Below the pieces are notes generated by a model. That model was not told where the DNA came from. It searched no databases and saw only the letters and a list, made by a program, of their open reading frames with translations. A stretch of DNA of 64,000 bases from Escherichia coli (GTDB lineage: Bacteria > Pseudomonadota > Gammaproteobacteria > Enterobacterales > Enterobacteriaceae): assembly GCF_001677475.2 (NCBI RefSeq), contig NZ_CP015229.1. One strand, 5' to 3'. Each line of letters begins with the position of its first letter. Position 1 is the first letter of the stretch. The position numbers were made by a program, and so were the translations under genes. Below are positions 4,275 to 11,692 of this stretch, piece by piece.

Positions 4275-4994
4275 TTACAGGCCAATCGCCTCTTTTAAGC
4301 TTTTCAGATAACGGCGGCTGACCGGCACGGTTAAGCCATTACGCAAAATCAACTCGGCCTGGCCGTTATCTTCCAGACGAATCTCCTGTAAATGCGCGAG
4401 GTTAACCAGATACTGACGATGGCAGCGCAGTAGTGGTGTACGACTCTCCAGGGTACGTAATGTCAATTCGGTAAAGCCCTCTTTCCCTTCGTGGCTGGTA
4501 ACGTAGACACCGCTCATCCGACTGCTGACAAATGCCACATCTCTCATTTGCAGCAAATAAATCCGACTATGCCCCGTACAAGGGATAAATTTCAGCGCCT
4601 GTTGATTTTCCGGTAACAGCGAAACATCCTGCTTGCTGCGTTCCTGACGCAAACGCGCCAGCGTTTTCTCCAGTCGAGCTTCATCAATTGGCTTCAGCAG
4701 ATAGTCAAAGGCATGTTCTTCAAAGGCTTTAATAGCGTATTCGTCAAACGCGGTGAGAAAAACAATATACGGACGATGTTCCGGGTCGAGCATCCCCACC
4801 ATTTCCAGACCACTGATGCGCGGCATCTGGATATCGAGAAACAGCACATCCGGGCGCAGTTTATGCACCGCGCCGATCCCTTCCACGGCGTTTGAACACT
4901 CACCAACGATTTCAATATCGCTCTGCTCCTGCAAAAATACGCGCAGGTTCTCCCGTGCTAACGGTTCATCATCGACAATTAAGACTTTAATCAT
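4275..4994 (-). CDS. btsR: LytTR-family response regulator BtsR (YehT)
   Basis: Receiver domain ([11 protein letters not shown]...) plus LytTR C-terminus; start ATG at 4994 overlaps btsS stop. Confidence 0.85.
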
Positions 4995-6676
4995 GCCTCG
5001 TCCCTCCATGGTAGTCGTAACGTTATTCGGGTGTAACTATCAGGCTCACAGGCGACGCTTATCCCATAGTCATCGCCAAACCGTTCACGTAAACGCTTAT
5101 CCACCAGATTCATCCCCAGCCCACTGGCATTGGTTACCGGTTGATACAAACCGGCATTGTCTTCGATCTCCAGCATCAAATGTTGCCCCTCACGTCGGGC
5201 GCTGATTGCCACTCGCCCTGTATCCAGCAGTTGTGATGTCCCATGTTTAATGGCGTTTTCCACTATCGGTTGCAGGGTAAACGCGGGCAATTGCTGCCGG
5301 GATAATTCCTCCGGAATAGCAATGTTGACCTGCAACCGTGACTGGAAGCGCGCCTTTTCAATTTGCAGATAAGCGTTCACATGTTCAATTTCGTCGGCGA
5401 GAGTAACAAACTCCGAAGGCCGCTTTAAGTTTTTGCGGAAAAAAGTGGAAAGATACTGCACCAGCTGGCTGGCCTGTTCGCTGTCGCGACGGATCACCGC
5501 TTTAATGGTGTTAAGCGCATTAAACAAAAAATGGGGGTTCACCTGGGCGTGAAGCAGTTTGATCTCTGACTGGGTGAGCATCGCTTTTTGCCGCTCATAT
5601 TGCCCGGCAAGGATCTGCGCCGAAAGCAGTTGCGCAATCCCCTCGCCCAGCGTGCGGTTGATTGAACTGAATAAACGGTTTTTGGCTTCATACAATTTGA
5701 TGGTGCCCATCACCCGCTGATTTTCACCACGCAACGGAATTACCAGCGTCGACCCCAGTTTGCATTGCGGATGCAAAGAGCAACGATAAGGTACTTCGTT
5801 GCCATCAGCGTAGACCACTTCACCGGTTTCAATCGCTTTTAAGGTGTAAGTCGAAGAAATCGGTTTGCCGGGTAAATGGTGATCGTCACCAATTCCGGTA
5901 AAGGCCAGCAATTTCTCTCGATCGGTAATCGCGACTGCACCAATATCCAGCTCCTGATACAGCACCTGTGCCACTTTCATGCTGTTCACTTCGTTAAACC
6001 CCTGGCGCAAAATGCCTTCCGTCGAGGCCGCCACTTTCAGCGCAGTGGCAGAAAAAGCTGAAGTGTATTTTTCAAACATCGCGCGTTTATCGAGCAATAT
6101 ACGCATAAACAGCGCCGCGCCGACGGTATTGGTGACCATCATTGGCGCAGCAATATTACTCACCAGACGCACCGCATCTTCATAAGGTCGGGCGATTGCC
6201 AGGATGATCAACATTTGCACCATTTCAGCGACGAACGTGACGGCACCGGCGGTAATGGGGTTAAAGACTTTATCAGTGCGCCCGCGACGGATCAGGATGC
6301 TGTGTACCAGGCCGCCGAGCAATCCTTCAACGATGGTCGAGATCATGCAACTTAGCGCGGTCATGCCCCCCATCGAATATCGATGTAACCCGCCGGTCAG
6401 GCCAACCAGCCCACCGACGACCGGACCGCCGAGTAAGCCGCCCATTACCGCGCCTATCGCACGGGTATTGGCAATAGAATCGTCAATGTGCAACCCAAAC
6501 CAGGTGCCCATGATGCAGAAGATGGAAAAGACGATGTAGCAGAGAAATTTATGCGGCAGACGAACCGTGACCTGCATTAACGGTATGAATAATGGCGTTT
6601 TACTCATTAACCACGCAATGACTAAAAAAACGCACATCTGCTGAAGCAGCAGCAACACCAGATTAAAATCGTACAT
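4991..6676 (-). CDS. btsS: Sensor histidine kinase BtsS (YehU), LytS family
   Basis: 561-aa membrane histidine kinase with 5TM-LytS, GAF and HATPase regions; start trimmed to [10 protein letters not shown]. Confidence 0.85.
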
Positions 6677-6897
6677 ACCCGCAAACCACACTTCCCTTTA
6701 AAACGCGTAACATACATTGCCTGCGTTTAACTTTCTTTGAACTCTTGCAGAAAAATGAGAATTCGTGAGTACGATCACTCAAAATCGCCTGGCAAAAATA
6801 AAATCACCCTATAAATGCACAAAAAACGGGCAAAACTACCTGGTTCGCAAAACTGCGTCTAAAGTTAAACCGGGACCTCGCGAGCAAGGGTGAGACG

Positions 6898-7629
6898 ATG
6901 GCGCTTTACACAATTGGTGAAGTGGCGTTGCTTTGTGATATTAACCCTGTCACGTTACGCGCGTGGCAGAGGCGTTACGGATTGCTGAAACCGCAACGGA
7001 CAGACGGCGGTCATCGGCTGTTCAACGATGCCGATATTGACCGTATCCGCGAGATCAAACGCTGGATCGACAACGGCGTGCAGGTCAGCAAAGTTAAAAT
7101 GCTGCTCAGTAATGAAAATGTTGATGTGCAGAACGGCTGGCGCGATCAGCAAGAAACATTACTGACCTACCTGCAAAGCGGCAATCTGCATAGCCTGCGA
7201 ACGTGGATCAAAGAGCGCGGTCAGGATTACCCCGCCCAGACACTCACCACACATCTGTTTATTCCTCTGCGCCGACGGCTTCAGTGCCAACAACCGACTC
7301 TCCAGGCGCTGCTGGCGATCCTCGACGGCGTACTGATCAACTACATCGCCATTTGTCTGGCTTCGGCACGTAAAAAACAGGGTAAAGATGCGCTGGTGGT
7401 TGGCTGGAATATTCAGGATACCACCCGTCTGTGGCTGGAGGGCTGGATTGCCAGTCAACAAGGATGGCGCATTGATGTCCTCGCCCACTCGCTCAATCAA
7501 CTACGCCCTGAACTATTCGAAGGCCGTACATTGCTGGTGTGGTGCGGTGAAAATCGAACCTCCGCCCAACAGCAGCAACTCACCAGTTGGCAAGAACAAG
7601 GCCATGATATTTTCCCACTCGGCATTTAA
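6898..7629 (+). CDS. mlrA: MerR-family transcriptional regulator MlrA (YehV)
   Basis: 243-aa product with N-terminal MerR HTH (MALYTIGEVALLCDINPVTLRAWQRRYGLL). Confidence 0.85.
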   Translation: MALYTIGEVALLCDINPVTLRAWQRRYGLLKPQRTDGGHRLFNDADIDRIREIKRWIDNGVQVSKVKMLLSNENVDVQNGWRDQQETLLTYLQSGNLHSLRTWIKERGQDYPAQTLTTHLFIPLRRRLQCQQPTLQALLAILDGVLINYIAICLASARKKQGKDALVVGWNIQDTTRLWLEGWIASQQGWRIDVLAHSLNQLRPELFEGRTLLVWCGENRTSAQQQQLTSWQEQGHDIFPLGI

Positions 7630-7688
7630 TGATTCGTTAACAAATGCGCTTTACTGTACAATCCTTTCGTTAACATAAGGAGTGCATT

Positions 7689-7796
7689 ATGCGCATAGCT
7701 AAAATTGGGGTCATCGCCCTGTTCCTGTTTATGGCGTTAGGCGGAATTGGTGGCGTCATGCTCGCAGGTTATACCTTTATTTTGCGTGCTGGCTAA
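7689..7796 (+). CDS. yohO: Small membrane protein YohO (35 aa)
   Basis: ATG preceded by TAAGGAG; encodes [35 protein letters not shown]; not in ORF track because shorter than its cutoff. Confidence 0.6.
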
Positions 7797-8508
7797 GCGC
7801 CTGCACCAGCCTTTCAAACAGGCGGTCTGCGATGATCGCCGCCAGTGCCACCAGTAACGCCCCCTGGATCACATACGCGGTATTAAATCCGCTAAGCCCG
7901 ATGATGATGGGCGTACCCAGCGTGCTGGCCCCTACCGTTGAGGCGATCGTCGCCGTACCAATGTTGATAATCACCGAAGTTCGCACGCCCGCCAGAATCA
8001 CCGGAGCCGCCAGCGGTAGCTCGACCTTACGCAGTCGCTGACCACGACTCATTCCCATACCTTTCGCAACTTCTGTCACGCTGGCATCAATCGCTCCCAG
8101 CCCGGCAAGTGTCGCCTGCAGGACGGGCAGCACACCATAAAGGATCAAGGCGATAATCGCTGGTTGCAGACCAAAGCCGATCACCGGAACAGCAATCGCC
8201 AGCACTGCGACAGGCGGAAAAGTCTGCCCAACGGCGGCAATAGTTTCCACCAGTGGGCGAAATTCCGCGCCCCACGGGCGAGTGACTGCAATTCCGGCAC
8301 CAGTGCCAATGATCACCGCAAACAAACTCGAAATTCCCACCAGCCAGAAATGAGCCAGTGCCAGAGCCGCAAAACTTTCTTGCTGATAAACGGGTCGTGG
8401 CAGTTGTGGGAACAAGGCAGCAAACAGCGGCTGGCTGTAAGGCAGCCAGAAAATCAGTGCCACAAACAAAGCAATGAGCCAGAACAGCGGATCGCGCAAC
8501 ATCTTCAT
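7777..8508 (-). CDS. yehW: Osmoprotectant ABC transporter permease YehW
   Basis: 243-aa polytopic permease, first gene after osmF-yehY-yehX in operon order. Confidence 0.85.
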
Positions 8509-8512
8509 ACGC

Positions 8513-9439
8513 TTACGCCTCCTCCAGCAGATCCTGAAAATGCAGCGTGCCGCAAGGCTGGCCCTGCGTGTTCACCACCGGCAGCACCTCGCATCCCCGC
8601 GCGACAAACAGAGAGAGCGCATCGCGTAGCGTCATCTCTTCTGCCAGTGCCTCACCTTCTGCTCGTTCTTCGCGACGCACGTAATCCGCCACACTACGTA
8701 ACGAAAGCAGGCGCACACCCAGTTCACTACGTCCAAAAAACTGGCGGACAAAATCATTCGCCGGACGAGTCAGCATCGTCAGCGGACTGCCCTGCTGCAC
8801 CACTTCACCGCGATCCATCAACACCAGATGTTCAGCCAGCCGTAGCGCCTCATCAATATCATGAGTGACCAGCACAATAGTGCGCCCCAGCAAACGGTGA
8901 ATGCGCGTCATCTCTTGTTGCAACGCGCCGCGCGTTACCGGGTCCAGTGCGCCAAAAGGTTCATCCATCAGTAAGACTTGCGGATCGGCAGCCAGTGCGC
9001 GCGCCACTCCCACACGTTGCTGCTGACCACCGGAAAGCTGATGCGGATAACGCTCACGCAAATTTGACTCCAGCCCCAGTAGCGCCATTAATTCGTCGAT
9101 ACGATCGTCAATCCGCGCCCGCGACCATTTTTGCAATTGCGGCACGGTAGCGATGTTTTGCGCCACGCTCCAGTGGGGAAACAGGCCAATAGATTGAATG
9201 GCATAGCCCATCCGGCGGCGCAACTCCAGTACTGGCAGCGAGCGAATTTCTTCTCCGGCAAAGCGGATCACGCCGCTGTCATGCTCCACCAGGCGGTTAA
9301 TCATTTTCAGGGTGGTGGATTTGCCGGAGCCAGATGTGCCAATCAGCACCGAAAAACTCCCTTCCTGAAAATTGAGATTGAGATCGTTAACGGCTTTTTG
9401 TGCGCCGAACAGTTTGCTGACATGGCTAAATTCAATCAT
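8513..9439 (-). CDS. yehX: Osmoprotectant ABC transporter ATP-binding protein YehX
   Basis: Walker [13 protein letters not shown] signature [10 protein letters not shown]-terminal CBS-like region. Confidence 0.9.
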
Positions 9440-10589
9440 TACGTTTCACCTTCAGCAGTGCGATAAGCAAATCGAACAGCGCGTCGGTAAGCACCGCCAG
9501 AACAATTACCGGGATCACCCCGAGCAACACTAAATCAATGGCGCTGCTTAGCAGCCCCTGGAAAACCAGCGCACCAAAACCGCCTGCGCCGATTAACGCC
9601 GCAATCACCGCCATACCTACAGTTTGCACCATCACCACCCGCAGGCTGCGCAGAAATACCGGTAACGCCAGTGGTAACTGAACATGCAGAAAACGCTGCG
9701 CCCCGCTCATGCCCATCACTCTGGCGCTCTCCAGCACATCGCGCGGGATCTGGTTCAAACCGACTACCACGCCGCGCACCAGCGGCAGCAAGGCATAGAG
9801 CACCAGCGCAATCAGTGCGGGTGTCATTCCGGTTCCTGCTATGCCGAGCTTCCCCAGCCACGGAAAGGCCGTAACCAGCGCGGCAAGCGGCGCAATCAAC
9901 AGGCCAAAGAGCGCCACCGAAGGCACGGTCTGAATGACATTGAGCAGAGAAAAAATCGCCCCCTGCCGCGCAGTGGAAAAGTAGCACCAGATGCCCAATG
10001 GCACACCAATCACTAACGCAGGCAGCACCGCACCAAACAGCAACGTCAGATGTTGCGCCAGCGCGTCGTCAAACACATCCTGACGGTTGACGTACTCTTT
10101 CATTAGCGAGAGATCGTTAAGCGCGCCGGAGTACAGCAACCACAGCGGAATGATGGCAATCTGCATATGCAACAACCAGCGCCACAGCGGATGCGTGGAG
10201 ATTCGGCGGATGGCATCACTACAGGCCAGCAATGCCAGCGCCATAGCCAACCAGAAACCACTGCCGAGGCTGGTACGCGCCAGCGCACTACCATTTTGCG
10301 CCAGTTGTGTCGCCGCCTTTCCAGCTCCCCACACCAGCAATACGAAGACGAATTGCGCCAGAATGAGTGCAAAAATGCTGCCTTTTTTAGCGGGAATAAA
10401 ACAGGCTGTCAGCCAGGCGCAACCAACGCCCACCAGCATCCAGATCGTTTGCGGCCACAGTTGCCAGAGATGACGCCCTTCACCCGAGACTAAACGATTA
10501 GGCGCGTAACTGATAAACGGCAGCGCCGCTGCGATTGCCGTCAGCAACAGCAGCAGCGCCAGAACAGGATTAATACGTAGATAAGTCAC
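9432..10589 (-). CDS. yehY: Osmoprotectant ABC transporter permease YehY
   Basis: 385-aa polytopic permease; GTG start at 10589; overlaps yehX start. Confidence 0.85.
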
Positions 10590-10595
10590 GGGAAA

Positions 10596-11513
10596 TTACT
10601 TCGTCCACCCTTTTTGTTTCAGGTAGTCGGCAGCCACTTTTTTGGCATCCAGTCCTTCCACTGCAATGCTGGCATTCAGTTGCTGCAATGTTTTTTCATC
10701 GAGGCTGGCGAAGACTGGCTGTAGCCACTGTGCCATTTGCGGATACTCCTTCAACACCGATTCACGCACCACTGGTGCAGGCGCGTAGATAGGTTGCACG
10801 CCTTGCGGATCGCTTAAGGTTTGCAGCCCCAGCGCCGCGACCGGACCGTCAGTGCCGTAAGCCATTGCGGCATTAACGCCAGAAGTTTGCTGGGCAGCGG
10901 CTTTAATCGTTACCGCCGTGTCGCCGCCAGCCAGTGACAGTAACTGATCCTGACCGAGCTTAAAGTCATAGGCTTTTTCAAAAGCGGGTAAGGCATCGGC
11001 GCGTTCGATAAACTCTGCCGAGGCTGCCAGTTTGAAGGTGCCGCCCTCTTTCAGATAACGACTCAGGTCGGCAAGCGAAGTGAGTTTGTTTTTCTCTGCC
11101 ACATCCTGACGCACGGCGATGGTCCAGGTGTTATTCGCAGGTGCGGGCGTCAGCCAGATTAACTTGTTTTGCTCTGCATCGAGTTTTTTGACTTTCTCGT
11201 AACCCTGTCCGGCATTTTTCCACGCTGCATCGTTTTCATCTTTAAAGAAGAAAGCGCCATTGCCGGTATATTCCGGATAGATATCCAGTTCACCGGAAGT
11301 AATCGCTCCGCGAACCACAGGAGTCGTTCCGAGTTGCACTTTATTGACCGTCGGTACGCCGTGGCTTTCGAGTACCTGCAAGATGATGTTGCCGAGTAGC
11401 GCGCCTTCGGTATCGATTTTTGAACCGACTTTAACGGGGGAAGCCGCGTGCAGCGGCAGGCTCACGGCTGCCAACAAAACCAGTGAACCTGCCCAGACCT
11501 TTGAGAGTGGCAT
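10596..11513 (-). CDS. osmF: Periplasmic glycine betaine-binding protein OsmF (YehZ)
   Basis: 305 aa with signal peptide, substrate-binding fold, first gene of yehZYXW operon. Confidence 0.85.
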   Translation of the reverse strand: MPLSKVWAGSLVLLAAVSLPLHAASPVKVGSKIDTEGALLGNIILQVLESHGVPTVNKVQLGTTPVVRGAITSGELDIYPEYTGNGAFFFKDENDAAWKNAGQGYEKVKKLDAEQNKLIWLTPAPANNTWTIAVRQDVAEKNKLTSLADLSRYLKEGGTFKLAASAEFIERADALPAFEKAYDFKLGQDQLLSLAGGDTAVTIKAAAQQTSGVNAAMAYGTDGPVAALGLQTLSDPQGVQPIYAPAPVVRESVLKEYPQMAQWLQPVFASLDEKTLQQLNASIAVEGLDAKKVAADYLKQKGWTK

Positions 11514-11641
11514 GATGCTTTCCTCATTCTTTTACTGTTGTTTTCAGCGAATTAAGAGAAAAGCATAGTTGATAATGGCGGGGTTAGCCTGACTGGGCGG
11601 ATTCAGTTGCAGAATCAGATAAATACTTAAGAGGCATATTC

Positions 11642-11692
11642 GGTCCGGCCTTTCCTGCCGGATGCGGCGCGAGCGCCTTATCCGGCCTACAA
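11642..11692. repeat. REP (repetitive extragenic palindrome) element
   Basis: gccggatgcggcgcgagcgccttatccggcctac matches E. coli REP consensus in osmF-bglX intergenic region. Confidence 0.6.

Follow-up and report, generated by a model that had tools for sequence, protein, structure and literature searches.

The convergent 20-bp overlap of yohO and yehW in Escherichia coli: a conserved, probably nested antisense arrangement

The genes yohO and yehW of Escherichia coli are both translated and overlap convergently, in an arrangement that is genuine and already annotated; their coding sequences (CDSs) share 20 bp. Published maps, some of them available as values reproduced in a later paper, show that yohO transcription ends antisense within yehW, partly through Rho, that the osmF-yehYXW operon RNA extends over yohO, and that cleaved double-stranded RNA (dsRNA) is formed. 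The best explanation, and in our judgment a highly probable one, is a nested convergent overlap in which a Rho-stopped yohO RNA pairs with the operon RNA and is probably cut by RNase III, with modest dampening as the likely outcome and a probably inert persistence of the overlap. The coding overlap is retained in every locus examined that holds the yehW 3' end.

Results

Geometry of the overlap

All positions refer to the window, the 64,000-nucleotide stretch of E. coli DNA (NZ_CP015229.1) that was analysed. MG1655 coordinates are obtained by adding 2,207,968 (U00096.3) or 2,205,989 (U00096.2) to window positions. The yohO CDS occupies 7689-7796 on the + strand (ATG, 35 codons and TAA at 7794-7796), and the yehW CDS occupies 7777-8508 on the − strand (243 codons and TAA at 7779-7777), both in the ORF listing and in RefSeq. 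The two adjacent genes are oriented tail to tail. Both stop codons lie inside the 20 bp common to the two CDSs (7777-7796), where the + strand encodes the end of YohO, (F)ILRAG*, and the − strand that of YehW, SQHAK*. The codons for YohO Phe30-Ile31 contain the yehW stop codon. A sequence-only reading of this DNA had placed the end of yohO at 7796 and that of yehW at 7777, with a 20-bp convergent overlap, which is exact according to the ORF listing and RefSeq. Its description of the last codons as mutually antisense was also correct, as were its gene identities (ORF listing, RefSeq and the family model NF010225). Because the CDSs interpenetrate, there is no intergenic room for a terminator, and each transcript must end inside the other gene.

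On the E. coli chromosome, the gene order is btsS, mlrA, yohO, then yehW-yehX-yehY-osmF on the opposite strand. The RefSeq annotation of E. coli NCTC9064 has an identical yohO/yehW geometry, and the locus was found in 5423 of 5426 complete E. coli genomes, with the stretch 7300-8600 at 95-100% identity. As a local baseline, nine convergent gene pairs were counted in the ~50 kb of annotated flank; yehW/yohO is the sole overlapping pair, the other eight being separated by gaps of 31-372 bp.

The yehW product is the permease of the OsmF-YehYXW glycine betaine ABC transporter, and its operon is annotated in the order osmF-yehY-yehX-yehW. Pfam BPD_transp_1 (PF00528) covers residues 68-239 of its 243 residues (95.8 bits vs a cut-off of 26.4).

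YohO is a translated small protein

YohO is a small membrane protein that has one helix and a GGIGG core. Its match to the NCBIfam equivalog NF010225 (PRK13681) spans positions 1-35 of 35 (80.1 bits, cut-off 57, E 8.8e-23). A representative search for relatives returned 17 matches, several of which are frameshift or chimera artefacts. Across 78 distinct yohO sequences, the entropies at the three codon positions are 0.54, 0.23 and 1.22, a coding signature, and in an 11-residue core they are 0.32, 0.03 and 1.15. Judged from these aligned sequences, the pattern is the signature of purifying selection acting on the protein. A Shine-Dalgarno sequence AAGGAG at 7677-7682 (+), 6 nt before the ATG, is kept in most loci. 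At the protein level, YohO was seen by top-down mass spectrometry (PMC12529367), and its translation is supported by ribosome profiling and by Hemm 2008, both as reported in a citing paper. The sequence-only reading had named ribosome profiling as a check; profiling, cited second-hand, and top-down mass spectrometry both bear out translation of yohO.

These data bear directly on the idea that the overlap is an annotation artefact, yohO being an untranslated chance ORF or yehW truly ending upstream. This idea draws on the size of yohO, just 35 codons, on the lack of a known function and on a Pfam search that returned no family for YohO. The NF010225 match, the coding entropy pattern and the strong AAGGAG ahead of the ATG all argue against the first part of it. 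As for the second, the yehW frame has no earlier stop and the YehW tail aligns across genera through its stop codon. An artefact is effectively refuted, and its probability is close to nil.

The yohO transcript ends antisense to yehW

A candidate −10 element of yohO, TACAAT, is located at 7657-7662 (+), 8 nt upstream of the published transcription start site (TSS), and its putative promoter role is consistent with a TATAAT/TATACT-like hexamer kept at this position across genera in upstream regions aligned by eye. According to Conway 2014, whose values are reproduced in Huang 2020 (Table S1e), the yohO transcription unit extends over 7671-7925 (+) (254 nt, P 2213660, T 2213914).

The 3' end of the yohO mRNA has been mapped to 7845 (+) (MG1655 2,215,813), 49 nt past the stop codon and inside yehW antisense. 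In the Term-seq data of Adams 2021 (PMC7815308), the 2,215,813 end has three entries in a file covering three growth conditions and is labelled 'primary' with respect to yohO and 'antisense' with respect to yehW. An independent method gave a yohO 3'-end peak at 2215809-2215818 (TRS 2023, PMC10687069). The 3'-end mapping that the sequence-only reading had proposed as a check is thus available for yohO from two independent datasets, which place the end at 7845, antisense inside yehW. There is no U-tract at the mapped end, the longest U run being 1. Further downstream, a Rho-dependent termination region, also antisense to yehW, peaks at 8027 (+) (MG1655 2,215,995; Adams 2021, PMC7815308, supplement 2), with a Rho score of 5.6 (p 9e-16). 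In the presence of bicyclomycin (BCM), coverage downstream of this region rises from 44 to 152. The + strand is C-rich and G-poor here, with a C/G ratio of 1.6 just after the yohO stop codon and of 1.9-2.1 at 7997-8116. The real RNA overlap amounts to ~250-300 nt, of which the 20-bp CDS overlap is the core.

An unannotated antisense transcript of ~800 nt against yehW, accompanied by TSS and RpoD-binding data, was presented as a figure example in K. pneumoniae MGH 78578, at 2,810,932-2,811,731 of that genome. We infer that this RNA is the Klebsiella yohO transcript.

Several features were observed around the yohO promoter. A 10-nt direct repeat, TTCGTTAACA, is present at 7633-7642 and 7666-7675 (+), 33 nt apart, and flanks the −10 element; most Enterobacteriaceae loci retain its TTAACA cores. 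From the sequence, this repeat could be a putative regulator binding site. The first copy is separated from TGTACA (7655-7660) by an N12 spacing, giving TTAACA-N12-TGTACA. This arrangement resembles the published MlrA box, TGTACA-N12-TGTACA, and is a candidate for such a site. On the − strand, a promoter-like site, ATGACC-17-CATAAT, runs from 7714 to 7686, and its −10 reads as the reverse complement of the region around the yohO start codon. Window position 7679, 7 nt downstream of this site, corresponds to a published antisense TSS, U00096.2 2213668(−). An RNA initiated at 7679 would be antisense to the yohO 5' UTR and to the 3' end of mlrA.

The operon transcript covers yohO

The osmF-yehY-yehX-yehW operon transcript extends over 7671-11555 (−), that is 3,884 nt (MG1655 U00096.2 2213660-2217544; Conway 2014, reproduced in Huang 2020, PMC7373196). 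With these second-hand values, the transcript starts at 11555, 42 nt upstream of the osmF ATG (11513), and extends 106 nt beyond the yehW stop codon, covering the entire yohO CDS. By the same boundaries, the whole yohO unit (7671-7925) is nested antisense inside the operon transcript (7671-11555). The operon end at 7671 has as its basis one RNA-seq study (Conway 2014), taken from its reproduction. A 3' end for the yehW transcript is absent from both 3'-end mapping supplements (Adams 2021; TRS 2023), and the SMRT-Cappable-seq supplements hold no entry for yohO or yehW.

Double-stranded RNA is formed over the overlap

p19 capture yielded a dsRNA cluster, S-173 ('yehW yohO', type 'Full'), at 7701-7992 on both strands (Huang 2020, PMC7373196, Tables S1e and S7). 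In stationary phase, it accounts for 368 RPM in total, 194 sense and 174 antisense. This is a mid-ranking value, since the top 20 coding clusters reach 4,478-17,960 RPM, and the same study found dsRNA to be far scarcer in convergent than in divergent overlaps. Three ~21-nt duplexes were placed on the window: + 7794-7814 with − 7792-7812, + 7798-7818 with − 7796-7816, and + 7832-7852 with − 7830-7850. Their 2-nt offsets match RNase III products; the dependence on RNase III was demonstrated for p19 capture in general rather than for this locus.

The pair also figures in the ExcludonFinder 2025 catalogue (PMC12288877), as one of 165 convergent excludons seen in 50% or more of 58 RNA-seq samples of MG1655. 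Of the features by which convergent excludons are recognized, published data show overlapping transcripts for yohO-yehW, and the published p19 data show formation and processing of dsRNA. The antisense pairing suggested by the sequence-only reading thus finds support in the p19 duplexes at 7792-7852 and in S-173 over the overlap, in the yohO 3' end located inside yehW and in the excludon listing.

Two observations concern the neighboring gene mlrA. RNase III-type p19 duplexes are found at 7316-7336, inside the gene. Antisense RNA, arising either from operon read-through or from the antisense TSS at 7679, must therefore extend into mlrA by 290 nt or more. In addition, Term-seq detects a 3' end within the mlrA ORF, 38 nt from its start (MG1655 2,214,904; window 6936, +), directly after a terminator-like hairpin at 6902-6924 that is followed by GCGTTGCTTT. 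Premature termination may occur at this position inside the curli regulator gene.

Hairpins at the overlap

A scan for intrinsic terminators over 6600-8700 gave none convincing near the overlap on either strand (4 sites vs 3.1 expected), and a search of 6700-8700 with the Rfam 15 covariance models gave 0 matches at E up to 1. Two hairpins can form in this region. One of them, GUGCUGGCUAAGCGCCUGCAC at 7784-7804, is a 7-bp interrupted helix centered on the yohO stop codon that can form on both strands. The other, GGCGGUC-UGCGAU-GAUCGCC at 7821-7840 (+), lies in the yohO 3' UTR, 5 nt upstream of 7845, and is antisense to the YehW AIIADR codons. A selected RNA structure was considered for both hairpins and rejected. 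Their folds are no better than those of shuffled sequences (z −0.8 for 7784-7804 and −0.7 for 7821-7840). In 71 aligned sequences, 67 of 500 shuffles equalled or exceeded the covariation score, and pairs changed on both sides were below the shuffle mean. The pairing of the hairpin at 7821-7840 is explained mainly by the conserved YehW residues AIIADR that this stretch encodes.

The position of GUGCUGGCUAAGCGCCUGCAC, a 7-bp interrupted hairpin possible on either strand right at the overlap, invites the view that it acts as a bidirectional intrinsic terminator ending both transcripts. However, no U-tract follows it on either strand, and a T-rich run is on the wrong side. It is absent from the output of the terminator scan, its z of −0.8 comes with 59% of alignment cells paired and no covariation, and the mapped yohO 3' end at 7845 is 41 nt further downstream. 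Moreover, dsRNA spreads well past 7784-7804 on both sides. Overall, the hallmarks of a bidirectional intrinsic terminator, a hairpin with flanking A- and U-tracts and both 3' ends at its base, were not found at the overlap, and we regard this view as very improbable.

Conservation across genera

A scan using one genome per GTDB species yielded 80 loci encoding YohO relatives. The yehW 3' end is present in 72 loci, from Enterobacteriaceae and Erwiniaceae and from more than 15 genera, and every one of them retains the CDS overlap. This conservation is new in this analysis. An overlap of 20 bp occurs in 33 loci including the E. coli reference (Escherichia, Salmonella, Citrobacter, Intestinirhabdus, Pseudescherichia, Shimwellia and others), and one of 26 bp in 31 loci (Raoultella, Klebsiella, Kosakonia, Phytobacter, Trabulsiella, Pluralibacter, Yokenella and others), where the YohO tail reads RGGVG. 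The overlap measures 17 bp in one locus and 14 bp in six Erwinia/Pantoea loci. A seeming exception, L057, comes from an assembly with ambiguous bases; by alignment it belongs with the 26-bp group. The YehW tails differ (...SQHAK, ...TRHVK, ...SRHRREQ, ...FKNG), and the YohO tail is also variable.

Two situations separate yohO from a complete partner. In Escherichia sp. MOD1-EC7003 (L005, 2589-2783), most of osmF-yehY-yehX-yehW is deleted. What remains is a 64-aa ORF in which the OsmF signal peptide is fused to the last ~40 YehW residues, with the 20-bp yohO overlap intact; bglX comes directly after this ORF. Separately, yohO is present without yehW in nine Erwinia/Pantoea loci (including L029, L034, L047 and L078). 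There, a GC-rich hairpin (e.g. GGCGGCA-loop-TGCCGCC) lies within ~15-40 nt, and a co-directional MFS transporter gene of ~492 aa is found ~130-150 nt downstream.

Upstream, the distance from the mlrA stop codon to the yohO ATG is 51-74 nt, mostly 59 nt, in most Enterobacteriaceae. The mlrA-yohO linkage is roughly as conserved as the yohO-yehW linkage (loci L001-L081), and it is kept without yehW in three Erwinia/Pantoea loci. In the Erwinia group, the yohO −10 reads GCTATACT, which resembles a sigma-S-type −10.

Discussion

We propose that the overlap is best understood as the center of a short nested gene. In the published maps, the yohO unit starts at ~7671, from what is probably its own promoter, and enters the 3' part of yehW antisense without an intrinsic terminator. 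Transcription of yohO is stopped, partly by Rho, over the next 100-250 nt, and a stable end lies at 7845, just past the 7821-7840 hairpin. This end would be that of a Rho-terminated transcript trimmed back to the hairpin. In the opposite direction, if the published boundary of the operon RNA holds, that RNA would pass the yehW stop codon and span the yohO CDS to ~7671, so that the yohO unit would be nested antisense in the operon tail. With both RNAs present, they pair, and the duplex is probably cut by RNase III. The likely outcome would be a modest, mutual dampening of yohO and osmF-yehYXW by polymerase collision and RNase III decay, and not a dedicated switch. The long persistence of the overlap probably reflects, for the most part, how little it costs to keep two weakly constrained tails interlocked.

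Comparison with known systems helps to place the locus. Like the convergent excludons of Conway 2014 and ExcludonFinder 2025, yohO and yehW are opposite-strand neighbors with overlapping transcripts and RNase III-cleaved dsRNA. However, most listed excludons overlap in their UTRs only, with a spacer averaging 95 nt (PMC12288877), whereas here the CDSs themselves overlap and the small gene has its entire transcription unit nested within the operon on the other strand. For yohO-yehW, the mutually exclusive expression that marks an excludon functionally is putative. The organization is also akin to that of tpx within tyrR/ycjG, of cspD and of yjjY (Huang 2020, PMC7373196), and to the non-contiguous operons of S. 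aureus, in which a short coding transcript is antisense within a longer one; Conway 2014 listed 18 annotated transcripts located completely within opposite-strand operons. The tpx, cspD, yjjY and yohO clusters alike show p19 dsRNA over more than 50% of the CDS and bear the 'Full' label, but the first three, which are top clusters, have 10-50 times more dsRNA reads than yohO. Some of the top clusters have Northern or Lybecker dsRNA-IP support, whereas the Lybecker columns are empty in the yohO row (PMC7373196).

Type I toxin-antitoxin systems (ibs/sib, ldr/rdl, hok/sok) were considered as another model, as they also place a gene for a tiny hydrophobic membrane peptide under an antisense RNA, and the antisense TSS at 7679 adjoins the yohO start codon. 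This model was rejected. yohO is a single-copy core gene across two families, and its antisense partner is the mRNA of a transporter operon, not a dedicated small RNA; the peptide is not known to be toxic. Furthermore, YohO is readily detected by mass spectrometry and, as cited second-hand, by ribosome profiling, so it is not tightly silenced.

In another alternative, the pair would be a selected convergent excludon: transcription of the sigma-S-dependent osmF-yehYXW operon and that of yohO, with its neighbor mlrA, would be mutually repressive, by polymerase collision and cleavage by RNase III. The resulting exclusive expression would have been maintained by selection since the Enterobacteriaceae-Erwiniaceae ancestor. 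The unbroken overlap in 72 loci, despite a length drifting between 14, 17, 20 and 26 bp and despite variable tails, is compatible with such selection. The alternative is also consistent with dsRNA formation and cleavage in vivo, with the cataloguing of the pair as an excludon, and with the GC-rich hairpin that yohO has downstream when yehW is missing. Nevertheless, 276 of 370 convergent operons (75%) overlap at their 3' ends (Conway 2014), so RNA overlap is the rule and not a sign of function. yohO is independent of its partner, since it survives without yehW in nine genomes and in one where nearly all of yehW is deleted, and the hairpins of the overlap show no covariation. Inertia also explains persistence, as separating the two genes needs a premature stop codon or an insertion. 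We therefore hold this alternative to be unlikely. The narrower claim that the nested yohO unit is a selected, RNase III-dependent reciprocal switch, kept since that ancestor, appears somewhat more doubtful still. If it were true, the switch would inversely couple YohO, and through read-through antisense RNA the curli/biofilm gene mlrA, to the stationary-phase glycine betaine transporter.

The nested overlap with modest dampening thus remains our preferred explanation. The overlap of yohO and yehW was already known from annotation, transcript overlap, dsRNA, the mapped 3' end and the excludon listing, and in itself it is of little consequence. Bringing these scattered datasets onto one coordinate frame shows the 20-bp CDS overlap to be the visible core of a short nested gene. 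The interlocking is kept in every examined genome with a yehW 3' end, across two families, which makes yohO-yehW a clean, small and naturally replicated test case for asking whether conserved convergent overlaps are regulatory or merely tolerated.
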